Below, piece by piece: positions 1,924 through 61,781 of a stretch of DNA of 64,000 nucleotides. The stretch comes from a plasmid: NCBI RefSeq assembly GCF_054482595.1, contig NZ_JBTHVH010000001.1; one strand, given 5' to 3'. The translations under genes and the position numbers were made by a program. The number at the start of each line of letters is the position of its first letter. The first letter of the stretch is position 1. Below the pieces are notes generated by a model, which was not told the origin of the DNA, did no database searches, and saw nothing but the letters and a program-made list of their open reading frames with translations.

Positions 1924-1940
1924 TCTGCTCTAATAAATTT
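1924..1940 (+). promoter_or_regulatory. C1 operator (Op51-like) in front of immI module 1
   Basis: TCTGCTCTAATAAATTT, 15/17 to the remembered consensus ATTGCTCTAATAAATTT. Confidence 0.8.
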
Positions 1941-2127
1941 GTATTTTTAAGTCGCGAATGCTATCTTTTTGCATCATATTGACCTTTTAATCGTTCAGGC
2001 TTATAGTTTCGCCGTCGTAGCAAATTCTGCGACCGGGTTTAGCAGCCTGAATGATTGTGCGGACAGCCGCAGATATCCGATATTGCGGTATTTTTGTGTC
2101 CGTAAAACTGCGTTACGCCCAAATTAT

Positions 2128-2204
2128 GGTGGGGCGTGATGGGGAGGCTTCGGCCTGCTGGTTTCACAATCGCCAGTCTGCTAACCCCGTCACGTCCTGC
2201 CACC
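2128..2204 (+). ncRNA. c4: c4 antisense RNA of immI module 1 (77 nt)
   Basis: GGTGG...CCACC terminal stem, internal CTTCGG hairpin. Boxes a' CACAAT (2165-2170) and b' CTGCTAA (2178-2184) are complementary to ATTGTG at 2054 and 2238 and TTAGCAG at 2039 and 2208. The 77-nt span matches the published c4 size. Confidence 0.8.
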
Positions 2205-2254
2205 TGTTTAGCAGCGGGTAGCAGGTTGTTAAACCTGATTGTGAGGCCGTAACT

Positions 2255-2476
2255 ATGGTTAATGCCAATCCTTGCGCACGCCAAGAATTCATCTGGCGTT
2301 TCTATTCCTGCAAAAAACACCACTATCACTTCGTCATCGCAGCAACAGAAGACGAAGCACGCTCTCAATTGCCTGATGGCCCCTGCATTTTTACTGCCCG
2401 TTTTTCAACTAACTCGCGCAATTCACTTAGTTACTGGAACCTCCCCTTCTCTTCCGACGTTCAGGGGGTTTTATGA
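2255..2476 (+). CDS. icd: Icd (cell-division inhibitor, leader ORF of ant)
   Basis: 73 aa. RBS GAGG is immediately preceded by the c4 target ATTGTG. ATGA overlap with ant. Confidence 0.85.
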   Translation: MVNANPCARQEFIWRFYSCKKHHYHFVIAATEDEARSQLPDGPCIFTARFSTNSRNSLSYWNLPFSSDVQGVL

Positions 2477-3516
2477 AAAAACCTCTCGTCACCCGTAATG
2501 ACATAGCCGAAGCGATCGCACTGCATACTGCCTGTATGCCGACACGGGAGATCCCCGGCGCAATTGCCAACTATTTCATGATAACCAGACGTTTTTATAC
2601 CCGAACAGATAAGGCTGTGATCAACAGGCTACTGATAGCCGAGATCAGGGATTATTTGATTGAACAAGGACGTCTACGTTACGCAACGGTGGCAGCAGAA
2701 ATGAGAAAGGAGGCACATAGAATGACCAGTAATAATTTGAATGTTAAAAAACCAGCATCTGTTGCTTCAGCTACGCCATCACCAGCTGTGAATGTTATCT
2801 CCAACACTGGAGACACAATCGACAGCCAGACGCTGTTAAAGATGGTCAATGAAGCGCGTAAGTTATGTGGGGAACCAGAGGTTCGGAACAACAAATTCAT
2901 CAAAAAAATACTCGACGAATTAGAAGGTGAGGACGGTTACACAAAAAGTGCAACCGTGCCGCCAGGTGGCGGTACGCCTATGGTTGTCATAACCATGACC
3001 TACAAACAAGCCCTGCGAGTCGCCGCGCGCGAGTCAAAAGCAGTCCGCCGTTCGCTGATCGACAAACTGGAAGAATTGCAGCAGGCAAACTCCCCTGCCC
3101 CATCGATCCCCCAAACATTACCAGACGCTCTACGCCTGGCTGCCGAGTTGGCAGAACAGAAAATGCAGTTGGAACAACAGCTGGTGGCCGCAGCCCCTAA
3201 AGTCGATTTTGCCGACCGGGTATCAGCGGCTAATGGAATCCTGATCGGGAACTTTGCAAAGGTCGTTGGACTTAAGCAAAACGCCCTTTTCTCATGGTTG
3301 CGCCAGAACGGCATTCTCATGGCTTTTGGTGCGCGCAAAAACGTACCGCGCCAGCAGTACATTAACGCCGGGTATTTCACGGTGAAAGAAGTGGTGCTGG
3401 ATGATGAAAATGGCTACCAGATACGGCTGACGCCCCAATTAACGGGTAAAGGCCAGCAGTGGTTAACTCGCAAGCTACTTGATGCTGGTTTGTTAAAACC
3501 AGTAGCAATAGGTTAA
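2473..3516 (+). CDS. ant1: antirepressor Ant, module 1
   Basis: 347 aa. Central Rha-like segment and C-terminal KilAC-type domain (LPDALRLAAELAEQK...APKVDFADRV...GNFAKV) shared with KilA and the other two Ant copies. Confidence 0.85.
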   Translation: MKKPLVTRNDIAEAIALHTACMPTREIPGAIANYFMITRRFYTRTDKAVINRLLIAEIRDYLIEQGRLRYATVAAEMRKEAHRMTSNNLNVKKPASVASATPSPAVNVISNTGDTIDSQTLLKMVNEARKLCGEPEVRNNKFIKKILDELEGEDGYTKSATVPPGGGTPMVVITMTYKQALRVAARESKAVRRSLIDKLEELQQANSPAPSIPQTLPDALRLAAELAEQKMQLEQQLVAAAPKVDFADRVSAANGILIGNFAKVVGLKQNALFSWLRQNGILMAFGARKNVPRQQYINAGYFTVKEVVLDDENGYQIRLTPQLTGKGQQWLTRKLLDAGLLKPVAIG

Positions 3517-3593: not shown

Positions 3594-3610
3594 TTTGCTC
3601 TAATAAATTT
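3594..3610 (+). promoter_or_regulatory. C1 operator (Op53-like) controlling kilA-repL
   Basis: TTTGCTCTAATAAATTT, 16/17. Confidence 0.8.
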
Positions 3611-23858: not shown

Positions 23859-23934
23859 GATGGTGTAGCTCAGCGGTTAGAGCGGTTGACTGTTAATCAA
23901 CGGGTCGATGGTTCAAATCCATCCACCATCGCCA
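23859..23934 (+). tRNA. trnA: tRNA-Asn (GTT)
   Basis: Manual cloverleaf: acceptor GATGGTG/CACCATC, anticodon loop CTGTTAA, T-loop GGTTCAAATCC, encoded CCA. Confidence 0.9.
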
Positions 23935-23936
23935 AT

Positions 23937-24012
23937 GCCGGTTTAGCTCAGTTGGTAGAGCGCCTGCCTTGTAAGCAGGATGTCAGCGGTTCGAGTCCGT
24001 TAATCGGCACCA
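23937..24012 (+). tRNA. trnT: tRNA-Thr (TGT)
   Basis: Acceptor GCCGGTT/AATCGGC (one G-T), anticodon loop CTTGTAA, T-loop GGTTCGAGTCC, encoded CCA. Confidence 0.9.
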
Positions 24013-25816: not shown

Positions 25817-25892
25817 GGCCCTTTAGCTCAGTGGTTAGAGCTGGCGACTCATAATCGCACGGTCACCGGTTCAAGTCCGGTAGGGGCCACCA
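25817..25892 (+). tRNA. tRNA with CAT anticodon (Met or lysidine-type Ile; the P1 counterpart is annotated trnI)
   Basis: Acceptor GGCCCTT/AGGGGCC, anticodon loop CTCATAA, T-loop GGTTCAAGTCC, CCA. Confidence 0.85.
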
Positions 25893-50730: not shown

Positions 50731-52214
50731 TGGCCAGAAGTTGCGTAACGGATCCACGTTGGCGCGAGCTGGTGGCGCTATATCGTTATGACTGGATTGC
50801 TGCCGCTGATGTTTTGTTCGGCAAAACACCTACCTGGCAGCAGGATCTGATTATTGAGTCTGTGCAGGAACAGGGTAGCAAGACATCTGTTTCGTCTGGT
50901 CACGGTACCGGGAAATCAGACATGACTTCTATCATGATCATGTTGTTCATAATCATGTATCCCGGTGCCCGCGCCATTATCGTTGCGAACAAAATTCAGC
51001 AGGTAATGACCGGTATATTCAAGTACATCAAGATAAACTGGGCTACTGCCACCAGCCGTTTTCCATGGCTTGCTGATTATTTTGTTCTGACAGAAACCGC
51101 TTTCTATGAGGTTACTGGTAAAGGTGTATGGACTGTAGTACCGAAGGGCTTTCGTCTGGGAAGTGAAGAAGCTCTCGCCGGTGAACACGCAGATCATCTT
51201 CTGTATATTATCGATGAAGCCTCCGGTGTCAGTGATAGAGCTTTCGGTATCATCACCGGTGCTCTTACCGGACAGGATAACCGCATCTTATTACTGTCAC
51301 AGCCTACACGCCCAAGCGGCTATTTCTACGATACTCATCATAAACTGGCCAAGCGTCCTGGTAACCCTGATGGCGTTTATACGGCGATCACGCTTAACAG
51401 TGAGGAATCACCGCTGGTAACGCCAGCATTTATCAAAATGAAGCTGGCGGAGTACGGCGGGCGCGATAACCCTATGTACATGATTAAGGTACGCGGCCTA
51501 TTCCCTAAATCACAGGATGGCTTCCTTCTTGGACGTGATGAGGTTGAACGTGCAACGCGGCGGAAAGTCAAGATTGCCAAAGGATGGGGCTGGCTTGCAT
51601 GTGTGGACGTTGCTGGTGGTACGGGAAGGGATAAGTCCGTTATCAATATCATGATGGTGTCCGGCCAGAGAAATAAACGCCGTGTAATCAACTATCGAAT
51701 GCTGGAATACACAGACGTTACAGAAACGCAGCTTGCCGCCAAAATTTTCGCAGAATGTAATCCTGAGCGATTCCCAAATATCACCATAGCGATAGACGGC
51801 GATGGGCTGGGTAAAGCAACAGCGGATCTGATGTACGAGTATTATGGTATTACCGTACAGCGTATACGCTGGGGTAAAAAGATGCATAGCCGTGAAGATA
51901 AGAGCCTGTACTTTGATAAACGTGCTTATGCCAACGTTCAAGCCGCAGAGGCCGTAAAATCTGGTCGTATGAGACTGGATAAGGGTAATGAAACTATTGA
52001 GGAAGCGTCGAAAATCCCTGTAGGGATTAACTCCGCAGGTCAATGGAAGGTGATGAGTAAGGAGGATATGAAGAAAAAACTCAACCTGCACTCACCAGAC
52101 CATTGGGATACATATTGTTTCGCTATGCTGGCGGATTATGTTCCCCAGGACGAAGTGCTTAGCGTCGAAGACGAAGCGCAGGTTGATGAAGCTCTGGCAT
52201 GGCTTAATGAATGA
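50730..52214 (+). CDS. pacB: terminase (pacase) large subunit
   Basis: 494 aa, ATG overlapping the pacA stop. Confidence 0.9.
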
Positions 52215-52217
52215 ACA

Positions 52218-52234
52218 TTTGCTCTAATAAATTG
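52218..52234 (+). promoter_or_regulatory. C1 operator in front of immI-like module 2
   Basis: TTTGCTCTAATAAATTG, 15/17, 4 nt after the pacB stop. Confidence 0.75.
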
Positions 52235-52417
52235 TGTTTTTTAACTACCGATGTTACATTGAACCTGACCTCTTGCGCCTTGAGGCATTTTCGGTTTATG
52301 CTTATCAGGCACCTCAGTAAAACGGGTGCCGGGATTGGCCTCCCGCTTAAGTCTAAGGCGATACAGACGCCGCTCGCGTCTTTTTTTTGTATCGGCGTAC
52401 ACGCACACCTCTACAAT

Positions 52418-52493
52418 GGTGGGCTGTATGGGGCTACCTTCGGGTAGGCTGGTTACCTTGGACGCCAGTAAGGCCAACTCCGTACAGTCCACC
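52418..52493 (+). ncRNA. c4-like antisense RNA, module 2 (76 nt, different recognition boxes)
   Basis: Same architecture as c4 (GGTGG...CCACC ends, CTTCGG hairpin). a' CCTTGGAC (52456) pairs with GTCTAAGG at 52351 and 52535. b' AGGCCAA (52471) pairs with TTGGCCT (52335) and TTGGTCT (52504). Confidence 0.65.
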
Positions 52494-52553
52494 GCCAGCA
52501 AGATTGGTCTCTTCTGCGGTGGTTACATACCAACGTCTAAGGAGGCTGCCAAT

Positions 52554-52775
52554 ATGGCTACTATCCCTACCCCAACTCATCCTGAATTTATCTGGCGCTT
52601 TTACTCCTGCCAAAAACGTCACTATCACTTCGTTATTGCACCGACAGAAGATGAGGCACGTTCTCAGCTTCCTGACGCCCCATGTATTTTCTCTGCCCGT
52701 TTTTCCACTGATTCACGCAATTCTCTCAGTTACTGGTGCCTCCCTGTTAACGCTTCTGCTCAGGAGGGACTATGA
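52554..52775 (+). CDS. Icd-like leader protein, module 2
   Basis: ATG 52554, 9 nt after AAGGAGG, which overlaps the a2 target. 73 aa, homologous to Icd from residue ~10. Confidence 0.75.
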   Translation: MATIPTPTHPEFIWRFYSCQKRHYHFVIAPTEDEARSQLPDAPCIFSARFSTDSRNSLSYWCLPVNASAQEGL

Positions 52776-53890
52776 GAACATCGTTAGTTACCCGTGAAGA
52801 GATGATCGAGGCAATTGAACAGCACACTGCCTGTATCAGTACCAGGGATATACCAGGCGTTATTGCCAACTACTTCATGATCACCAAACAACTTTACCGG
52901 AGAAAGGACAAGAACGCGGTTCACCGTATCCTGTTGTCTGATATCCGCGAATACCTGCTCGAACAGGGTCATCTGAATTACGCAACCGTCGCAGCCGAAT
53001 CACGCAAGGAGGCACACAGAATGAAAGCAACTAACGTTAAATCAGAAAAAATTCATGCACCTTCAGTTCAGGAATCGGAGCTGGTGGTTGTTCAGAATCA
53101 GTCTGATGAAATTCCCGTTCTGGAATGGCAGGGAGTGCGTGTAGTGACAACCGAGACTCTTGCTAGAGGGTATGGGACAGAAACAATCCGTATTCGCCAA
53201 AATCATCATGAGAACAAAGTACGCTTTGTTGAAGGGAAGCACTTTTTCAAAGTTGAAGGAGAATCATTGCGCGAGTTGAAGCACAGAGTAGCTTTAAACT
53301 ACTCTGTAAAAATTGCTCGCAATGTTCGCTCACTCACCCTCTGGACAGAACGCGGCGCAGCCCGCCACGCTAAAATGCTCGAAACCGATCAGGCATGGGC
53401 ATTCTTTGAAAAACTGGAAGACAGCTACTTCCGACAAAAAGAACAGCAACCGATCGCAATCCCCCAAACATTACCAGAAGCCCTACGCCTGGCTGCCGAA
53501 CTGGCTGAACAAAAGCAGCTTCTGGAACAGAAAGCCCACCAGCTAAATCAGCAGCTGGTGGCCGCCGCTCCTAAGGTCGATTTTGCCGACCGGGTATCAG
53601 TAGCTAAAGGGATCCTGATTGGGAATTTTGCAAAGGTTGTTGGACTTAAGCAAAACGCGCTGTTTGTCTGGTTACGGGAGAACGGCATCCTGATAGCGTC
53701 CGGTGGACGTAAAAATGTGCCGTTCCAGCAGTACATCAACGCGGGGTATTTCACGGTGAAAGAAGTGGTGCTGGATGATGAAGATGGCTACCAGATACGG
53801 TTGACGCCTCAATTAACGGGTAAAGGCCAGCAGTGGTTGACGCGTAAACTGCTCGATGCTGGCTTGTTAAAACCGGTGGCGGCTGAATAA
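52772..53890 (+). CDS. antirepressor Ant-like, module 2 (ORF6N/KilA-N-type central domain)
   Basis: 372 aa. N-terminal 85 aa and C-terminal KilAC region match module 3. The centre differs (VLEWQGVRVVTTETLARGYG...). Confidence 0.8.
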   Translation: MRTSLVTREEMIEAIEQHTACISTRDIPGVIANYFMITKQLYRRKDKNAVHRILLSDIREYLLEQGHLNYATVAAESRKEAHRMKATNVKSEKIHAPSVQESELVVVQNQSDEIPVLEWQGVRVVTTETLARGYGTETIRIRQNHHENKVRFVEGKHFFKVEGESLRELKHRVALNYSVKIARNVRSLTLWTERGAARHAKMLETDQAWAFFEKLEDSYFRQKEQQPIAIPQTLPEALRLAAELAEQKQLLEQKAHQLNQQLVAAAPKVDFADRVSVAKGILIGNFAKVVGLKQNALFVWLRENGILIASGGRKNVPFQQYINAGYFTVKEVVLDDEDGYQIRLTPQLTGKGQQWLTRKLLDAGLLKPVAAE

Positions 53891-53897
53891 TGGAAGA

Positions 53898-53926
53898 ATG
53901 CCCGGTTGATGCCGGGCATAATTTAT
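53898..53926. terminator. hairpin between convergent ant-like and c1 genes
   Basis: ATGCCCGG-TTGATG-CCGGGCAT. Confidence 0.6.
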
Positions 53927-54774
53927 TGCGCGCTTTCGGGGTTGTCGTTTACTGGCTGCCCCTTCTTGGTTTTACGGCTGCGCGTAACTGATGCGGCTGA
54001 CTTAACCTTTTTCTCTTCGCGAGTGATGGCAATTTGTTTTTTTACATTTTCAATATCTGCCAGGCGATATATTTTTGCTTGCGGCCAGCGGTCGCAGATG
54101 ATCGGTTCTATGGAGTCATAAAGGCTAAATTTTGCTTTTTCGAATTCACCGTTGATGATAATTCCATCACGGAGAGTTTCATCGCAGATAAACACGCCAC
54201 ACAGTGGCACATGGTAACTAACTGATTTACCATCATTGTAGTTAGGGCTACTGGAAATGTAGTGGACGCGCAGCATTGTTTCGCTAAAGCCGTGTACGCG
54301 CATACGGAATTTTTCATCCTCCGGGTACTGCCTCATTAGCTCTTTTGTTGCTTCCAGGTTCTCTATGTATTTCGCACTGTGCTCATTGATCCCCGCGCTT
54401 TTTTGGATGCGAATGTCCTTATCAATCAGATGAATAATGCGGCCAGCGGTCATGTTGACGCTGTTCACAGCTTCTGTCTGATAAGTTGTAACCTTGCGCA
54501 CACCGCGAAGGATGTTAGGCACTGGATATAAAATAGTCTTTGGGATATTGAGGTCTGGGTACTGTTCCAGTTCCCGCGCCATTAAAGTCCATTTATCAAT
54601 TTCAGCCTGAATGCTGTCTGTTTCTTTGAACGGTAGAACGACAACCGGGCGTACAGGACGACCGTCGCTGGCGGCATCAACGTGTTGGGCGCGTGCAACA
54701 GCTTTTTTTAGAAAGAGATCCCTGAAGCTGACGAACTCCTGGTACAGTTGTTCGCCGTAGACATAATTTATCAT
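53923..54774 (-). CDS. c1: C1 master repressor
   Basis: 283 aa. MINYVYGEQLYQEFVSFRDLFLKK... as I recall for P1 C1. Confidence 0.9.
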   Translation of the reverse strand: MINYVYGEQLYQEFVSFRDLFLKKAVARAQHVDAASDGRPVRPVVVLPFKETDSIQAEIDKWTLMARELEQYPDLNIPKTILYPVPNILRGVRKVTTYQTEAVNSVNMTAGRIIHLIDKDIRIQKSAGINEHSAKYIENLEATKELMRQYPEDEKFRMRVHGFSETMLRVHYISSSPNYNDGKSVSYHVPLCGVFICDETLRDGIIINGEFEKAKFSLYDSIEPIICDRWPQAKIYRLADIENVKKQIAITREEKKVKSAASVTRSRKTKKGQPVNDNPESAQ

Positions 54775-54868
54775 TGATCCTCCTCCAGAATTGACATGGT
54801 CAATAACGCCCGGCTGAGAAAACCGGTCATTACTGACCTATATTATAGAGGGATCAAACAAAAATAAT

Positions 54869-54885
54869 AGATTTATTAGTGCATT
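54869..54885 (-). promoter_or_regulatory. C1 operator (Op99a-like) upstream of c1
   Basis: Reverse strand AATGCACTAATAAATCT, 14/17. Confidence 0.65.
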
Positions 54886-55094
54886 TATTGTGAGTCTAAC
54901 TGGTTAGTTGTCATGAGATATTCGATTGTGTCAGTGAGGTCATCCAGGTCGTCTTGGGTGATGCGGTACTCCTGATTGGATATCTTTGAGTAGTGTTCAG
55001 CAATGGCGCGGGCAGCGTCGGTTTCGGCAGGGTCTACAGATAAAGCGTTAGAGCAATGTCTAACGTCGTCGATGGTTGGTTGAATGAAAGCCAT
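54885..55094 (-). CDS. coi: C1 inactivator
   Basis: 69 aa. P1 synteny. Confidence 0.8.
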   Translation of the reverse strand: MAFIQPTIDDVRHCSNALSVDPAETDAARAIAEHYSKISNQEYRITQDDLDDLTDTIEYLMTTNQLDSQ

Positions 55095-55331
55095 AATTAT
55101 GCCTCACTGTATTGACAACACAGAGCCCGAAGCTCTGACCTACTGTTTCACCCATGATCCATGCTGGGGTAATCTAACAACATTGCGCTGTGTGTAAGAT
55201 GAGCAATGCATAGCTGTAATGCCGTTGTATAAGGTTTCCCTGTTTGCTCATTTCCTTCTGAGCCGCTCTACAACGCTGAAGACACATTAAATAGTGAATC
55301 CAAAGTCGTATTACGTAACGGCGGCAAAACT

Positions 55332-55348
55332 ATAATTTATTAGAGCAA
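55332..55348 (-). promoter_or_regulatory. C1 operator (Op99 cluster)
   Basis: Reverse strand ATTGCTCTAATAAATTA, 16/17. Confidence 0.8.
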
Positions 55349-55415
55349 TTGTCAAACAACTATGAAAAACAATCCAGTTTTTAGCTGGTGGAGTGGGATT
55401 TTTCTCTCAAAATTT

Positions 55416-55432
55416 ATTGCTCTAATAATTCT
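55416..55432 (+). promoter_or_regulatory. C1 operator (Op99 cluster)
   Basis: ATTGCTCTAATAATTCT, 15/17. Confidence 0.7.
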
Positions 55433-55475
55433 TGATTTTTATGCGCAGCTGGACGTAAACTCCTCTTCGGATCTA

Positions 55476-55509
55476 ATAACTTCGTATAGCATACATTATA
55501 CGAAGTTAT
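55476..55509 (+). other. loxP: loxP recombination site
   Basis: Exact ATAACTTCGTATA-GCATACAT-TATACGAAGTTAT. Confidence 0.98.
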
Positions 55510-55698
55510 ATTAAGGGTTATTGAATATGATCAATTTACCTGTAAATCCATACAGTTCAATACTGTAGCAGGTCAAATAGTGACCACTTGATCATTTGAT
55601 CAAGGTTGCGCTACGTAAAATCTGTGAAAAATTGGCGGTGTTAGTCCTACAGATTTCGCGTAGCGCACTTAGCACCACCAATCAATCAGAGGTGAAAA

Positions 55699-55920
55699 AT
55701 GGGATATTCAACTGCTAAAGTGTCCACTCATCTTGAGCTTGAGAAAAACCGTGGTTACTGGCGGGCAAAAGGGTTTGATCGTGATAGTTGCCAACTGTCA
55801 TTATCGCGCGGTGAAGAGAAAATAGAACGCACGCGCGGTCGCTGGCGTTTCTATGACGAGAACCATAAACAGGTAAAGGCAGAGCCGATCCTGTACACTT
55901 TACTTAAAACCATTATCTGA
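55699..55920 (+). CDS. cra: small protein upstream of cre
   Basis: 73-aa ORF. P1 synteny. Confidence 0.7.
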   Translation: MGYSTAKVSTHLELEKNRGYWRAKGFDRDSCQLSLSRGEEKIERTRGRWRFYDENHKQVKAEPILYTLLKTII

Positions 55921-55927
55921 GTGTTAA

Positions 55928-56959
55928 ATGTCCAATTTACTGACCGTACACCAAAATTTGCCTGCATTACCGGTCGATGCAACGAGTGATGAGGTTCGCA
56001 AGAACCTGATGGACATGTTCAGGGATCGCCAGGCGTTTTCTGAGCATACCTGGAAAATGCTTCTGTCCGTTTGCCGGTCGTGGGCGGCATGGTGCAAGTT
56101 GAATAACCGGAAATGGTTTCCCGCAGAACCTGAAGATGTTCGCGATTATCTTCTATATCTTCAGGCGCGCGGTCTGGCAGTAAAAACTATCCAGCAACAT
56201 TTGGGCCAGCTAAACATGCTTCATCGTCGGTCCGGGCTGCCACGACCAAGTGACAGCAATGCTGTTTCACTGGTTATGCGGCGGATCCGAAAAGAAAACG
56301 TTGATGCCGGTGAACGTGCAAAACAGGCTCTAGCGTTCGAACGCACTGATTTCGACCAGGTTCGTTCACTCATGGAAAATAGCGATCGCTGCCAGGATAT
56401 ACGTAATCTGGCATTTCTGGGGATTGCTTATAACACCCTGTTACGTATAGCCGAAATTGCCAGGATCAGGGTTAAAGATATCTCACGTACTGACGGTGGG
56501 AGAATGTTAATCCATATTGGCAGAACGAAAACGCTGGTTAGCACCGCAGGTGTAGAGAAGGCACTTAGCCTGGGGGTAACTAAACTAGTCGAGCGATGGA
56601 TTTCTGTCTCTGGTGTGGCTGATGATCCGAATAACTACTTGTTTTGCCGTGTCAGAAAAAATGGCGTAGCTGCGCCATCTGCCACCAGCCAGCTATCAAC
56701 TCGCGCCCTGGAAGGGATTTTTGAAGCAACTCATCGATTGATTTACGGCGCTAAGGATGACTCTGGTCAGAGATACCTGGCCTGGTCTGGACACAGTGCC
56801 CGTGTCGGAGCCGCGCGAGATATGGCCCGCGCCGGAGTTTCAATACCGGAGATCATGCAAGCTGGTGGCTGGACCAACGTAAATATTGTCATGAACTATA
56901 TCCGTAACCTGGATAGTGAAACAGGGGCAATGGTGCGCCTGCTGGAAGATGGCGATTAG
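55928..56959 (+). CDS. cre: Cre tyrosine recombinase
   Basis: 343 aa. MSNLLTVHQNLPALPVDATSDEVRKNLMDMFRDRQAFSEHTWKMLLSVCRSWAAWCKLNN... Confidence 0.98.
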   Translation: MSNLLTVHQNLPALPVDATSDEVRKNLMDMFRDRQAFSEHTWKMLLSVCRSWAAWCKLNNRKWFPAEPEDVRDYLLYLQARGLAVKTIQQHLGQLNMLHRRSGLPRPSDSNAVSLVMRRIRKENVDAGERAKQALAFERTDFDQVRSLMENSDRCQDIRNLAFLGIAYNTLLRIAEIARIRVKDISRTDGGRMLIHIGRTKTLVSTAGVEKALSLGVTKLVERWISVSGVADDPNNYLFCRVRKNGVAAPSATSQLSTRALEGIFEATHRLIYGAKDDSGQRYLAWSGHSARVGAARDMARAGVSIPEIMQAGGWTNVNIVMNYIRNLDSETGAMVRLLEDGD

Positions 56960-56976
56960 CCATTAACGCGTAAATG

Positions 56977-56993
56977 ATTGCTCTAATTCTTTG
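56977..56993 (+). promoter_or_regulatory. weak C1 operator-like site (Op2 position)
   Basis: ATTGCTCTAATTCTTTG, 13/17. Confidence 0.45.
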
Positions 56994-57009
56994 ATATTTA
57001 TGGCGACAT

Positions 57010-57321
57010 ATGAGAAAGAATTTCAACATCGACGGAAAATATGTAGTGCTGTCAGTGAGCACTAATATTCAGTCGCCAGCCGTCATTGTCACTGTAAAGC
57101 TGAGCGATAGAATGCCTGATATTGACTCAATATCCGTTGCGTTCCCTGTCAGAAGTATGCGTAGTGCTGAACATTTCGTGATGAATGCCACCGAGGAAGA
57201 AGCACGGCGCGGTTTTGCTAAAGTGATGTCTGAGTTTGGCGAATTTTTGGGGCACGTTGACAAAGCCCTCTCAATCAGTTCAGCAAGATCCAAAGCATTA
57301 ACAGCTTCCATGATGAAATAA
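57010..57321 (+). CDS. hypothetical protein downstream of cre (c8 position)
   Basis: 103-aa ORF. Identity with P1 c8 not verified. Confidence 0.5.
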   Translation: MRKNFNIDGKYVVLSVSTNIQSPAVIVTVKLSDRMPDIDSISVAFPVRSMRSAEHFVMNATEEEARRGFAKVMSEFGEFLGHVDKALSISSARSKALTASMMK

Positions 57322-57326
57322 AAAAA

Positions 57327-57345
57327 GCCTGGCAAGGAGCCAGGC
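57327..57345 (-). terminator. minus-strand terminator (end of the module-3 transcript)
   Basis: GCCTGGC-AAGGA-GCCAGGC, with T7 on the minus strand. Confidence 0.65.
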
Positions 57346-57523
57346 TGCACAAAAGAGCGGGTTTGTATTCCGCATCCAATCAATCAAGAAGGAGTATAGC
57401 ACACAGGTACTGACGTGAAAAAATATGATTCGCGATAAACAAAATACCTATCATTGCTCTAATTGAGCCGCAGTTTTTGTCAACTACGAAGACGTGGCCA
57501 TTACCTACTCCTTTGAAATCATT

Positions 57524-57547
57524 GGCGACCATTAGGCCGCCTTTTTT
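57524..57547 (+). terminator. plus-strand terminator
   Basis: GGCGACC-ATTA-GGCCGCC (one mismatch) plus T6. Confidence 0.5.
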
Positions 57548-57549
57548 AA

Positions 57550-58602
57550 TCATTCAGCCGCCACCGGTTTTAACAAGCCAGCATCAAGTAGCTTGCGAGT
57601 CAACCACTGCTGGCCTTTACCCGTTAATTGGGGCGTCAGCCGTATCTGGTAGCCATTTTCATCATCCAGCACCACTTCTTTCACCGTGAAATACCCGGCG
57701 TTGATGTACTGTTGGCGCGGTACGTTTTTGCGCGCACCAAAAGCCATGAGAATGCCGTTCTGGCGCAACCATGAGAAAAGGGCGTTTTGCTTCAGTCCAA
57801 CGACCTTTGCAAAGTTCCCGATCAGGATTCCATTAGCCACTGATACCCGAACGGCAAAATCGACTTTAGGGGCTGCGGCCACCAGCTGCTGATTTAGCTG
57901 GTGGGCTTTCTGTTCCAGAAGTTGCTTTTGTTCAGCCAGCTCGGCAGCCAGGCGCAGAGCTTCGGGGAGTGTTTGGGGGAGCACTGGAGAAGCAGTGTTA
58001 GCCTGCTGCAATTCCTCCAGTTTGTCGATCAGCGAACGGCGGACCGCTTTTGACTCGCGCGCGGCAACTCGCAGGGCTTGTTTGTAGGTCATGGAGATAG
58101 TTTCAGATGTTGTGTTGTTTAATTTTTGCACTACGAAAATTTCGTAGTACTCACCATCCAGTTCATCCTTAACTCTGGCAATAAAATCATTATTGCGAAC
58201 TGGTTTTTCGCTGCATAATTTCCGCGCTTCATTGACCATCTTCAACAATGTTTGGCTGTCTATTGTGTCGCCGCTGTTGGGGATAACATTCACGGCTGGT
58301 GCAGTTGTTCCCAAAGACTTCGTAACTACAGCGTCTGGTTTGCTTGCTTTCATTCTGTGTGCCTCCTTGCGTGTTTCGGCTGCGACGGTTGCGTAATTCA
58401 GATGCCCCTGTTCGAGCAGGTATTCACGGATATCGGTTAGCAGAATGCGGTGAACCGCGTGTTTGTCCTTTCTCCGGTAAAGTTGTTTGGTGATCATGAA
58501 GTAGTTGGCAATAACGCCTGGTATATCCCTGGTACTGATACAGGCAGTGTGCTGTTCAATTGCCTCGATCATCTCTTCACGGGTGACTAATGACGTTCTC
58601 AT
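57550..58602 (-). CDS. antirepressor Ant-like, module 3
   Basis: 350 aa. Centre and C-terminus resemble module 1; the N-terminus resembles module 2. Confidence 0.8.
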   Translation of the reverse strand: MRTSLVTREEMIEAIEQHTACISTRDIPGVIANYFMITKQLYRRKDKHAVHRILLTDIREYLLEQGHLNYATVAAETRKEAHRMKASKPDAVVTKSLGTTAPAVNVIPNSGDTIDSQTLLKMVNEARKLCSEKPVRNNDFIARVKDELDGEYYEIFVVQKLNNTTSETISMTYKQALRVAARESKAVRRSLIDKLEELQQANTASPVLPQTLPEALRLAAELAEQKQLLEQKAHQLNQQLVAAAPKVDFAVRVSVANGILIGNFAKVVGLKQNALFSWLRQNGILMAFGARKNVPRQQYINAGYFTVKEVVLDDENGYQIRLTPQLTGKGQQWLTRKLLDAGLLKPVAAE

Positions 58603-58820
58603 AGTCCCTCCTGAGCAGAAGCGTTAACAGGGAGGCACCAGTAACTGAGAGAATTGCGCAAATCGGTAGAAAAGCGGGCAGAGAAAATACAGGGAGCATC
58701 CGGAAGCTGAGAACGTGCCTCATCTTCTGTTGGTGCGATAACGAAGTGATAGTGACGTTTCTGGCAGGAGTAAAAGCGCCAGATAAATTCAGGGCGTGCG
58801 CAAGGATTGGCATTAACCAT
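58599..58820 (-). CDS. Icd-like leader protein, module 3
   Basis: 73 aa. MVNANPCARPEFIWRFYSC... Confidence 0.8.
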   Translation of the reverse strand: MVNANPCARPEFIWRFYSCQKRHYHFVIAPTEDEARSQLPDAPCIFSARFSTDLRNSLSYWCLPVNASAQEGL

Positions 58821-58870
58821 AGTTACGGCCTCATGTACAGGTTTAACAACCTGCTATCCGCTGCTAAACG

Positions 58871-58947
58871 GGTGGCAGGACGTGACGGGGTTAGCAGACT
58901 GGCGTACATGAAACCAGCAGGCCGAAGCCTCCCCATCACGCCCCACC
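58871..58947 (-). ncRNA. c4-like antisense RNA, module 3 (77 nt; a' box CATGTA instead of CACAAT)
   Basis: Near-identical to c4 of module 1 except the a' hexamer. Both targets are changed to TACATG (forward-strand coordinates 59016-59021 and 58832-58837). Confidence 0.75.
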
Positions 58948-59121
58948 ATAATTCGGGCGTAACGTGGTTTTACGGACACAAAAATACCGCAATATCGGAT
59001 ATCTGCGGTTGTCCGCATGTACATTCAGGCTGCTAAACCCGGTCGCAGAATTTGCTACGACGGCGGAACTATAAGCCTGAATGACAGGAAGATCAATAGT
59101 CTGGCGTTCAATGGTAGTATT

Positions 59122-59154
59122 TTTGCTCCAATAAATCAAATCTATTAGAGCAAT
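59122..59154 (-). promoter_or_regulatory. bipartite C1 operator between module 3 and the MBL-fold gene
   Basis: Reverse strand ATTGCTCTAATAGATTT (16/17) at 59138-59154, plus weak TTTGCTCCAATAAATCA at 59122-59138. Confidence 0.7.
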
Positions 59155-59296
59155 AAATTATTATCCCAAGCTTTACAGTGCGCTGTAAAATTCAAACCTT
59201 CGGGTCAGTGGCGGAATCGTATTTCACTCACGGAATGAGTATTATTAGTTTTGTCATACATAGCTAGGTAATGAATCACTTGAAGGAACTACGAAC

Positions 59297-60097
59297 ATGT
59301 CCGTGACCATTAGCGTCCTGCTGGAAAACAGACTTAAGCTTGGAGTTAAAAACTCGCTGCGTGCTAAAGCAGGACTTAGTCTGTTGATACAGGATGAAAA
59401 CGATTCAATCCTGTTTGATACTGGGCCTGATGATAGCTTCATGTATAACGCAGGTTTAATGGGGGTCGATTTGACAAAACTGACCGCAGTTGTACTTTCC
59501 CATGGTCACTATGACCACTGCGGAGGTGTTCCGTGGATACCAGACACATGCAGGATAATATGCCATCCTATGGTGTCGGATGAGCGCTATTCGGCAATCA
59601 GGTTTTTAGGCTATACCGCCAGAATAAAAAAATTATCATTACATAATGATTTTTCACGTTTCCGCATGGAATACAGCAACACACCATTGCATATCAGTGA
59701 GCGTTTTATGTGGTCAGGAGAGATCCCTGTTGCCAGGCCACGCGCTTACGGTGTTATCGGGTGTAAGAATACGAAAGAAGATTACGTAAAAGATGAGGGG
59801 GTTTTAATTTATAAATCAGACTATGGGTTGATCATTTTTATCGGTTGTGGTCATTGCGGGGTAATTGATATTGTGCGCCACTGCCAAAATATAACCGGGA
59901 TAAATCATATTCATGCAATTTTTGGTGGTCTTCATCTGCGCTGTGCGTCCCCTCTTATGCTCTGGAAGGTGAGACAGTTCTTACGCCTTCATAAACCAGA
60001 TAAGATAATGGGGTGTCATTGTACTGGCAAATGGGGACGCTTGTGGTTACCGGAATCAACCTCTCCGGCAACAGGTGATGTTTATGTTCTTGGATAG
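59297..60097 (+). CDS. metallo-beta-lactamase-fold hydrolase
   Basis: HGHYDHCGG (HxHxDH) motif, with downstream His/Cys/Asp ligand candidates. 266 aa. Confidence 0.75.
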   Translation: MSVTISVLLENRLKLGVKNSLRAKAGLSLLIQDENDSILFDTGPDDSFMYNAGLMGVDLTKLTAVVLSHGHYDHCGGVPWIPDTCRIICHPMVSDERYSAIRFLGYTARIKKLSLHNDFSRFRMEYSNTPLHISERFMWSGEIPVARPRAYGVIGCKNTKEDYVKDEGVLIYKSDYGLIIFIGCGHCGVIDIVRHCQNITGINHIHAIFGGLHLRCASPLMLWKVRQFLRLHKPDKIMGCHCTGKWGRLWLPESTSPATGDVYVLG

Positions 60098-60211
60098 ACA
60101 TGGTGCTGTTTCTGTTCATGTCGATTGTGTGGTTGGGGGCAAGAAAGAATTCACCTTGCTGAATAAGTCAGAGATGGAGTTGCTGGCTGACGCCTATGAG
60201 ATGGCAAACGT

Positions 60212-60282
60212 CATGCACTAATAAATATATTATTTTTAATGATAAATGATTGACAACTGACAAGTGACTTCAGCCAGAATCA
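60212..60282 (+). promoter_or_regulatory. composite control region: C1 operator-like site, TTGACA, GTGACTT-N4-CAGAAT
   Basis: CATGCACTAATAAATAT (13/17) at 60212. TTGACA at 60250. GTGACTT at 60264. This matches the published description of dual C1/late control of P1 mat. Confidence 0.5.
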
Positions 60283-60414
60283 TCACACGCCCGGTACGGA
60301 TGGATCCCTTTTCAAATATTCCATGGACGGCACAGTCTGAGTACCGGGCGCTACCTTCAGTTGTATGTATTGCTAAGCCGCCGCTGGTGGCTTTTCTTTT
60401 TTGTAGGGGGCGCT

Positions 60415-61056
60415 ATGGATAAGAAAATATGCGTTGTTTCGATGAGCGTCGGCAAACCGGCGTCAATGACTGCTGCATGGATCAATAACGAGCTGATAAT
60501 GGCTGAGCGGACCAGCTACCCTGAACGCCGCCGCGATATGGAACTCCAGCTGCTGCGCGAATTGCGAGAAAAAGAGGAAAAGGGGTTTATCGTGCTGGTG
60601 GAAGAGGAAAACAGCTTTATTACTGGTCGAGTTGGCCAGCGTGTAAGGTTGCGCGATCCCTTCATGAACGGCAGGCCGGTACTAATTGAGGCAATGCAGA
60701 TTTATAAGGAGTTGGAACGCCAGAAAGCAATCAAGTTACCGCGCAAGGAATCCGGCAAATACATCCTCCACCAAAGCATCTTCGATTCCGAACACGATAA
60801 AAAAGGCGATGAATTTTTCAACATCAACTGGAGCGAAATAACGACAGAGCATGTTCTGACGTTACTATGTTGCTTTGCGACGGAATACAACAACGTTGCC
60901 AGCGCCGACTACATCAGGGCAATGGCTGGAGAAGTTGAGGCACGCCAGGAACCATCGTTACTAAGCCCTCTGATTAACATAATTCGCAGAACCCAAACAC
61001 TGGCGCAAAAACAAGTACCACAAGGGGAATTGACGGGTAAAGGTAATTATCTCTGA
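60415..61056 (+). CDS. mat: hypothetical protein, possibly the particle maturation function
   Basis: ATG 60415 after AGGGGG. 213 aa. Symbol inferred only from position and promoter architecture. Confidence 0.45.
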   Translation: MDKKICVVSMSVGKPASMTAAWINNELIMAERTSYPERRRDMELQLLRELREKEEKGFIVLVEEENSFITGRVGQRVRLRDPFMNGRPVLIEAMQIYKELERQKAIKLPRKESGKYILHQSIFDSEHDKKGDEFFNINWSEITTEHVLTLLCCFATEYNNVASADYIRAMAGEVEARQEPSLLSPLINIIRRTQTLAQKQVPQGELTGKGNYL

Positions 61057-61095
61057 AAGATGCCCGGCGATAGACCGGGCAAAAGGGCGGAAAGT

Positions 61096-61344
61096 TTAAT
61101 CAGCATTCAGGAGCAATGCGTTATCTATGATGATCTGCTCCCATTCTTCGAATGCCCGATCGCGGACGCCCTGGGGAACACTGTTAGTTTTGAAATCGAC
61201 GACCGTACGCCATTTCCCGTCCGGACGGTACATGCGCAGAGCTTTACTTCCCCCTTCCCTGCGCACCTCAACGTTATGCTTGTCAGCAAACTCTTGTAAT
61301 GCTCGTAACGTCCCATGCTTTACTGTGTAGTATCGCTTTTTCAA
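61096..61344 (-). CDS. lxc: 82-aa protein, probable Lxc (Bof) C1 co-repressor
   Basis: Length and position (upstream of ulx/darB) match P1. Sequence not verified. Confidence 0.55.
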   Translation of the reverse strand: MKKRYYTVKHGTLRALQEFADKHNVEVRREGGSKALRMYRPDGKWRTVVDFKTNSVPQGVRDRAFEEWEQIIIDNALLLNAD

Positions 61345-61781
61345 GTTTTCTCTCCAGCCTGTGCCAAGGCTTCAACTTCCAAATCATAAGACTCAAACTC
61401 ATAGTCCTGGTCGTCAACTTCTTCAGGCACTGGCAGTAAATGCCAGGCTGAGTATATCTGACCATTATCAAAACGCTCCTGGCTGTAGAGCGTAGCGGCT
61501 ATGAGTGTTAGCGCCGGGCGGTCATAACGGTAAATTTTGCGAACGTCACGGTCAACGAGACGACCGAAATTACCATAACCGCGCTCCAGTAATAATTTTT
61601 TAATTTCCGGCCAGTATGGACCATAGCTGCGGTACAGGCGGGGATTTTTCAGTAATCGCCCGCGTAGCCCTGACAGGAAGAAATCAACGTATTCGTCTTC
61701 TGTCTTTCCTAACAACGCCGTACGCAGTACCGCCTCAAGATATGTTTTATTCGGTTTTATTGTATCAGATAGTGTGGCCAT
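61341..61781 (-). CDS. ulx: protein upstream of lxc
   Basis: 146-aa ORF, ATGA-type overlap with lxc. Confidence 0.55.
   Translation of the reverse strand: MATLSDTIKPNKTYLEAVLRTALLGKTEDEYVDFFLSGLRGRLLKNPRLYRSYGPYWPEIKKLLLERGYGNFGRLVDRDVRKIYRYDRPALTLIAATLYSQERFDNGQIYSAWHLLPVPEEVDDQDYEFESYDLEVEALAQAGEKT

Follow-up and report, generated by a model that had tools for sequence, protein, structure and literature searches.

The immunity region immI of phages P1 and P7 gives rise to a small antisense RNA, c4, which is processed to about 77 nt by RNase P and represses translation of icd and ant in trans. The c4 RNAs of these two phages are the textbook example of how a trans-acting antisense RNA determines immunity specificity, and have so far been discussed as two alleles. 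According to the P1 GenBank record, two boxes are involved, a (TTGACAG in P1, TTAGCAG in P7) and b (GTTAGTG in P1, GATTGTG in P7), and the two phages differ at two positions of either box in each of its three copies. Citron and Schuster reportedly described the heteroimmunity of P1 and P7 in 1990. The DNA considered here, hereafter the window, is a stretch of 64,000 nt from a plasmid (RefSeq assembly GCF_054482595.1, contig NZ_JBTHVH010000001.1) and represents a P1-like phage-plasmid of Escherichia coli; positions 51500-61500 are 99.2% identical to plasmid pYZMc17-1_100k. It harbors three c4-icd-ant modules. The third, module 3, is probably a working immI paralogue with an antisense specificity of its own, combining the a box of P7 with a b box, GTACATG, of neither P1 nor P7.

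Module 3 shares with immI of P7 the order of the parts, the promoter and operator layout, the c4 fold and the a boxes. In contrast to P7, its b box reads GTACATG rather than GATTGTG at b1, b′ and b2 (four of seven bases), so that its predicted specificity is not that of P7. It also lies at c8-mat on the opposite strand and not beside kilA-repL, its Ant is only about 76% identical, and it is additional to a true P7-type immI, module 1, whose c4 is identical to P7 c4 at 77 of 77 positions and whose boxes are both of the P7 type. The architecture and presumed mechanism of P1 immI are likewise the same, and each element annotated there (a1, b1, c4, a2, b2, Oc4 and two promoters) has a counterpart in module 3; however, the a and b boxes of P1 are two and three bases away, respectively, and the predicted specificity is therefore not that of P1 either.

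The b box of module 3

A preliminary description of this DNA reported that modules 1 and 3 match almost base for base except for one hexamer, exchanged in the antisense RNA and in both of its targets. All six hexamers are found where it placed them: ATTGTG at 2054 and 2238 and CACAAT at 2165 in module 1, and, on the minus strand, TACATG at 59021-59016 and 58837-58832 and CATGTA at 58910-58905 in module 3. The exchange is nevertheless shorter than six nucleotides, as the difference is confined to four contiguous bases (ATTG to TACA; CAAT to TGTA) and the trailing TG is common to both. The identity between the modules is indeed high, but the interval that had been aligned with 2021-2280, 59060-58801, is shifted by 6 nt and has an ungapped identity of 21%. 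With position x corresponding to 61075-x, 2021-2280 matches 59054-58795 with 18 mismatches over 260 nt (93.1% identity). Twelve of these mismatches are the three four-base changes, and outside the boxes 242 of 248 positions are identical. TTAGCAG/CTGCTAA is unchanged in both modules, as had been stated; only the names of the boxes had been interchanged, since in the P1 record the unchanged box is a and the changed one is b.

The c4 RNA of module 3 differs from that of module 1 and P7 at four loop bases only (73 of 77 identical), and both targets carry the exact complementary change, so that the complementarity of the three changes holds on the alignment. A gapped search for TTAGCAG followed by GTACATG finds exactly three sites, two in sense orientation and c4 as the complement, and the corresponding search with GATTGTG also finds exactly three, in module 1 (0.00-0.01 in shuffled sequences in either case). 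Within module 3, a2 and b2 are each paired to a′ and b′ by seven of seven Watson-Crick pairs. The c4 region scores 71.7 bits against the Rfam C4 family (RF01695, gathering threshold 45), and its predicted minimum-free-energy fold is that of the P1 and P7 RNAs, with b′ in a hairpin loop and a′ unpaired.

By homology with P1 and P7, a constitutive promoter would yield a single RNA comprising leader, c4, icd and ant, from which the 77-nt c4 would be cut out. The loop box b′ and the junction box a′ would then pair with b2 and a2 ahead of icd, masking the icd ribosome-binding site and thereby shutting off the translationally coupled ant, while the C1 operator would contribute transcriptional control. 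Because the b loop of module 1 c4 would be unable to pair with b2 of module 3, and vice versa, each module would be mainly under the control of its own c4.

Covariation and alleles among P1-type modules

IMG/VR was scanned for the c4 core and the six boxes of each match were tabulated. The anchors demanded an exact 29-nt c4 core, which fixes part of c4 by construction, and the surveyed sequences are related by descent. A first scan gave 113 loci; its anchor, ending in TTTCA, masked alleles in which b′ does not start with CA, and a shorter anchor exposed the allele b6. The survey comprises at least 141 P1-type modules on at least 129 contigs. Among the matches listed there are two a alleles, TTGACAG (aP1) and TTAGCAG (aP7), and at least six b alleles, GTTAGTG (bP1), GATTGTG (bP7), GTACATG (b3), ACGAATG, ACTTGTG and ACTTACG, which differ from one another by at least two of seven bases; 11 of the 12 a × b combinations are present.

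In the modules with full flanks (at least 132), a1 and a2 are always identical and reverse-complementary to a′, and the same is true of the b boxes. In 35 distinct sequences, all 490 cells pair (490/490), leader/c4 and c4/target helices alike. Double changes occur in 7 of the 14 pairs, while controls slid along the sequence pair at 25-52%, and neither one-sided changes nor wobbles were seen among the 14 pairs of the 35 sequences. Polymorphism is concentrated in the boxes, with 21 of 42 columns variable as against 10 of 193 elsewhere. The compensatory covariation first proposed for modules 1 and 3 is thus strongly supported well beyond that pair, the 35 natural modules being 100% Watson-Crick. 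The link that had been drawn to P1/P7 heteroimmunity is also apt, as those phages differ in the same coordinated manner at all three sites and module 1 is exactly of the P7 type.

The sole mismatch among the modules surveyed is in locus L038 (IMGVR_UViG_2565956613_000015), where a b4-type c4 (b′ CATTCGT) faces a bP1-type b2, GTTAGTGA. Another contig of the same isolate (L062) holds an aP7-bP1 module whose c4 would match the L038 target in both boxes. Judged from the boxes, this looks like a recombination between co-resident modules that left the target covered in trans.

Taken further, P1-like phage-plasmids may run a combinatorial antisense lock-and-key code, with two a and at least six b alleles kept in register at three sites, and may stack up to four or more different modules in the course of an arms race between immunity and anti-immunity. 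This broader proposal is tentative, and the same holds for its corollary that an unusual three-site switching is needed, given the interleaved order a1-b1...b′-a′-a2...b2, the near-free assortment of the boxes and the lack of intermediates among the modules seen. One idea is that the sites switch by short-patch conversion between modules of the same genome, another that template-switch (quasi-palindrome) mutagenesis acts at the inverted repeats.

Stacking, cross-silencing and the role of module 3

Modules of different type are found together in the same genome. At least eight contigs, the window included, hold two to four P1-type modules, and when contigs are grouped by isolate at least 14 genomes do. 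One 97-kb contig carries aP1-b3, aP1-bP1, aP1-b5 and aP7-b3; another carries aP7-b3, aP7-b6 and aP7-bP7, combining a single a box with three different b boxes. Among the matches listed, an (a,b) type is repeated within a genome in none of the 14 cases (P about 0.014 under a random draw from the observed frequencies, a draw that ignores the linkage between alleles and sites), which is suggestive of type exclusion within genomes. IMGVR_UViG_2703718869_000013 (about 100 kb; loci L100, L083, L045 and L017) has four P1-type c4 modules, all of different types, and IMGVR_UViG_651053023_000001 (about 100 kb; L014, L132 and L086) has three, again all different; on the latter contig a b3 and a b6 module lie side by side at c8-mat in divergent orientation.

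Cognate pairing of the b loop with b2 is predicted by RNAduplex at -11.1 to -11.9 kcal/mol. On the b box alone, the energy drops from about -11.8 kcal/mol for the cognate duplex to -1.6 kcal/mol for c4 of module 1 on the target of module 3 and -3.2 kcal/mol for c4 of module 3 on the target of module 1, whereas the a′/a2 duplex, common to both modules, contributes -9.0 kcal/mol. Summed over both boxes, the two crosses amount to -10.6 and -12.2 kcal/mol, as against about -21 kcal/mol for cognate pairs. The P1 × P7 crosses, between phages that are reportedly heteroimmune (PMC6906374, PMC12197685), come to -8.7 and -10.5 kcal/mol. Since the energies of the module 1/3 crosses are close to those of the P1 × P7 crosses, orthogonality is plausible; that the two RNAs do not cross-silence each other's ant, as the preliminary description expected, would on these predictions be plausible but borderline.

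The same figures can be read as redundancy. Module 3 would then be a duplicate in which the shared a′/a2 pairing, together with C1 control, lets either c4 hold both ant genes down, the b difference being of little consequence. The a boxes of modules 1 and 3 are identical, with the predicted duplex energy given above, C1 operators stand ahead of both modules, and some contigs hold modules that differ in one box only. We nevertheless regard redundancy as unlikely: the perfect three-site covariation of b over at least six alleles, with no intermediates among the matches listed, argues for strong selection on b pairing, b alleles are never closer to each other than two bases, and it is b2 that overlaps the icd Shine-Dalgarno sequence, a2 lying about 30 nt upstream of it.

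Several points weigh against a separate specificity of module 3 and against the code proposed from it. The shared a box makes partial cross-repression possible, and the duplex energies take no account of loop geometry or of possible protein cofactors. The non-repetition of types is confounded by descent, b3 being linked to a single genomic site and certain types of Ant, and different sites may just hold old paralogous lineages. Because the anchors required an exact core, the allele counts are lower bounds and the frequencies are biased.

The b3 allele is absent from the canonical immI site among the IMG/VR matches listed. Its modules are located between mat and cre/c8, or at a second site whose surroundings match window positions around 27800-29400. 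An aP1-b3 module lies beside such sequence in L048, L063 and L100; the window has no c4 there. Of 568 PLSDB plasmids with a P1-type c4, 28 have at least 99% identity to the c4-to-b2 segment of module 3; a further 25 fall at 95-99%, where aP1-b3 modules would be expected. A P1-type c4 is carried by 529 of 5426 complete E. coli genomes (about 10%), at up to four places per genome; of the 541 records with a match, 44 reach at least 99% identity and another 33 lie at 95-99% (about 77/541, or about 14%). The arrangement of two specificities in one replicon recurs across dozens of sequenced plasmids. Among deposited phages only vB_EcoM-Ro157c2YLVW has the b3 allele, which is unannotated there. Chance, an assembly artefact and a pseudogene were considered as origins of the module and rejected, as a 99-100% identical module occurs in many complete plasmids and its genes are intact and constrained.

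Of the b3 modules, 14 extend far enough downstream, and in each of these both icd and ant are intact; the ant genes of b3-module homologues are under purifying selection (dN/dS 0.05-0.35, dS up to 0.36). At 97.6% conservation, the RNA region outside the boxes varies little, whereas divergence at synonymous sites of ant reaches 0.36. These observations bear on the suggestion that module 3 is a decaying or silent relic of recombination without present function. Its position in the variable c8-mat hot spot, where P1 has ref, would suit such an origin, but with intact and constrained reading frames, a conserved RNA region and a presence in some 77 of the 541 P1-like replicons from complete E. coli genomes, a relic is very improbable indeed.

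A further explanation places the difference in the protein. The diverged Ant of module 3 would target another repressor, such as C1 variants of P1-like prophages or the repressors of unrelated ones, and its c4 allele would merely be linked to it. The b3 modules never encode a canonical Ant1-type protein but belong to two other Ant clusters, the 76% identity between the Ants of modules 3 and 1 reflects differences within the first 230 or so residues, and the Ant of module 2 has yet another middle domain, ORF6N. However, the C-terminal KilAC half is nearly identical among the three Ants of the window and Ant1 of P1, and a new target for Ant leaves the three-site covariation of b and the non-repeated types unexplained. 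As a full account it seems to us quite improbable; a different weapon and a different key are not mutually exclusive and can both hold.

If module 3 has its own antisense specificity, a prophage with stacked modules would keep down the antirepressors of a wider range of relatives entering the cell, and an invader with stacked modules would have better odds that at least one Ant escapes the c4 set of the resident and inactivates C1. The preliminary description had suggested either broadened superimmunity or an anti-immunity arsenal. Both would be consistent with the non-repeated types, the always-intact ant of b3 modules and the purifying selection on it; as ant is retained and constrained, defence alone would not be the whole story.

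Module 3 would represent a third specificity in a natural genome and a member of an allelic series of two by at least six. Should the alleles prove orthogonal in vivo, one could predict from sequence both superinfection immunity and mutual induction among P1-like phage-plasmids, which some 10% of complete E. coli genomes carry, and the selective pressure behind extra antirepressor modules would be identified. Some P1-like phage-plasmids are reported to carry resistance genes. The series would also constitute a natural library of orthogonal kissing-loop RNA regulators. The c4 RNA region is without an annotated feature in the PLSDB and RefSeq E. coli records shown and in most P1-like phages; outside P1, P7 and RCS47 these RNAs are unannotated in RefSeq/GenBank, so that this layer of immunity is invisible in current annotation.

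Layout of the modules and relation to described systems

The window contains three matches to the Rfam C4 family, at 2122-2207 and 52412-52499 on the plus strand and at 58868-58953 on the minus strand, and the designation of the last as the third module is therefore correct. Each module carries a different set of boxes and has one C1 operator ahead of it (Table 1). A c4-a1b1 leader precedes modules 1 and 3, and an isrK-type leader precedes module 2. Module 1 occupies the canonical immI site (sim/kilA-repL), ahead of kilA-repL; module 2 is flanked by pacB and c1, a location shared with its counterpart in phage RCS47. Module 3, encoded on the opposite strand, is found in the c8-mat interval, where it and a gene for an MBL-fold metallo-hydrolase together take the place of P1 ref. 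The hydrolase reading frame (59297-60097, 266 aa) is divergent from module 3. The c8-mat interval is a known variable hot spot for which insertions have been described (PMC6906374).

All parts of a P1-type immI are present in module 3, in order, between about 59189 and 57326 on the minus strand, including overlapping icd and ant genes, the latter with a KilAC domain and an Ant2-like start within the reading frame. The promoter-like site just upstream of the operator is a candidate C1-controlled promoter, with a role analogous to P2c4 of P1, and the terminator-like hairpin probably marks the 3′ end of the module; both assignments come from consensus scans. The identical icd gene in pYZMc17-1_100k is named "host cell division inhibitor Icd-like protein" in RefSeq. 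The boxes of module 2 are unrelated to those of modules 1 and 3 (a = TTGGCCT/TTGGTCT; b = GTCTAAGG) and follow the same logic with some G-U wobble pairs. Near-identity with module 3 extends over the 3′ half of icd and the first 85 or so codons of ant in module 2, which suggests exchange between the two modules.

Table 1. Positions of the three c4-icd-ant modules of the window and of their parts
Feature	Position	Strand	Remarks
Module 1	1924-3516	+	canonical immI; both boxes P7 allele
Module 1, C1 operator	1924-1940	+	
Module 1, box a1	2039-2045	+	
Module 1, box b1	2053-2060	+	
Module 1, c4	2128-2204	+	
Module 1, box b′	2165-2171	+	within c4
Module 1, box a′	2178-2184	+	within c4
Module 1, box a2	2208-2214	+	
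Module 1, box b2	2237-2244	+	
Module 1, icd	2255-2476	+	ORF list
Module 1, ant	2473-3516	+	ORF list
Module 2	52218-53890	+	between pacB and c1
Module 2, C1 operator	52218-52234	+	
Module 2, leader	52309-52386	+	matches Rfam isrK
Module 2, C4-family RNA	52412-52499	+	Rfam
Module 2, icd-like gene	52554-52775	+	
Module 2, ant	52772-53890	+	ORF6N and KilAC
Module 3, promoter-like site TTTACA-18-GATAAT with TG	59160-59189	-	consensus scan, 10/12 matches; just upstream of the C1 operator
Module 3, C1 operator ATTGCTCTAATAGATTT	59138-59154	-	1 mismatch to consensus
Module 3, promoter TTGATC-17-TATAGT	59068-59096	-	homologue of P1c4 (former P51b); alignment to the annotated P1 promoter; scan 9/12
Module 3, c4-a1b1 leader motif	59022-59074	-	Rfam RF03163, 55.5 bits (gathering 46.7)
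Module 3, box a1 TTAGCAG	59030-59036	-	P7 allele; alignment with the annotated P1 record
Module 3, box b1 GTACATGC	59015-59022	-	allele b3 (P7: GATTGTGC); alignment, pattern search
Module 3, c4 antisense RNA, 77 nt	58871-58947	-	boundaries by homology to annotated P1 c4
Module 3, box b′ CATGTAC	58904-58910	-	in 9-nt hairpin loop of c4; fold and alignment
Module 3, box a′ CTGCTAA	58891-58897	-	in single-stranded junction of c4; fold and alignment
Module 3, target box a2 TTAGCAG	58861-58867	-	alignment, pattern search
Module 3, target box b2 GTACATGA	58838-58831	-	sequence; homology to annotated P1 b2
Module 3, icd Shine-Dalgarno GAGG	58832-58829	-	overlapped by b2
Module 3, icd-like ORF, 73 aa	58599-58820	-	ORF list; stop overlaps ant start
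Module 3, ant, 350-aa antirepressor	57550-58602	-	C-terminal KilAC, Pfam PF03374, E = 3.4e-28
Module 3, Ant2-like in-frame internal start, Met84	58353	-	preceded by AAGGAGG; Met84 invariant
Module 3, terminator-like hairpin and T run	57326-57346	-	consensus scan only

Sites resembling the C1 operator are spread across the window, 11 being found where 0.02 are expected (for example at 3594, 19655, 23177, 33412, 39177, 55333 and 55416), in keeping with the numerous C1 operators known from P1. Three tRNA genes match Rfam tRNA at 23859-23931, 23937-24009 and 25817-25889, presumably where the P1 family has its tRNA cluster.

The mechanism of c4, the a and b boxes, the difference between P1 and P7 and the existence of extra ant or icd-ant genes in P1-like plasmids are already known. 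Both RNA motifs, C4 and c4-a1b1, are in Rfam (PMC2864571), and a second c4-icd region has been described in a D6-like plasmid (PMC6799933). An extra antirepressor gene between pacB and c1, and homologues of icd-ant1/2 elsewhere, have been reported in RCS47, pTZ20_1P and pSvP1 (PMC6906374). RCS47 carries the counterpart of module 2. These reports describe genes only, and an analysis of c4 boxes or specificity for the extra modules was not found in the literature searched. Likewise, the full-text literature searched yielded no account of additional c4 box alleles, of the way they assort in combinations or of stacking without redundancy; an earlier description is possible, especially in the D6 paper (Gilcrease and Casjens, 2018).

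Small RNAs that restrain an antirepressor or anti-immunity gene also occur in P22 (sar/ant), N15 (CB RNA/antA) and Gifsy-1 (IsrK/AntQ), as reviewed in PMC12197685. Unlike c4, these systems employ other RNA families and geometries, sar being a true cis-antisense RNA. To our knowledge, no two-box combinatorial allele series has been described for P22 sar, N15 CB or Gifsy-1 IsrK. In plasmid incompatibility determinants based on antisense RNA, such as RNA I of ColE1 and CopA of R1, a few kissing-loop bases set the specificity, and new specificities arise via matched changes in the RNA and its target. There, however, RNA and target are transcribed from opposite strands of the same DNA and one mutation alters both, whereas in the c4 modules the matched changes are at three separate sites.

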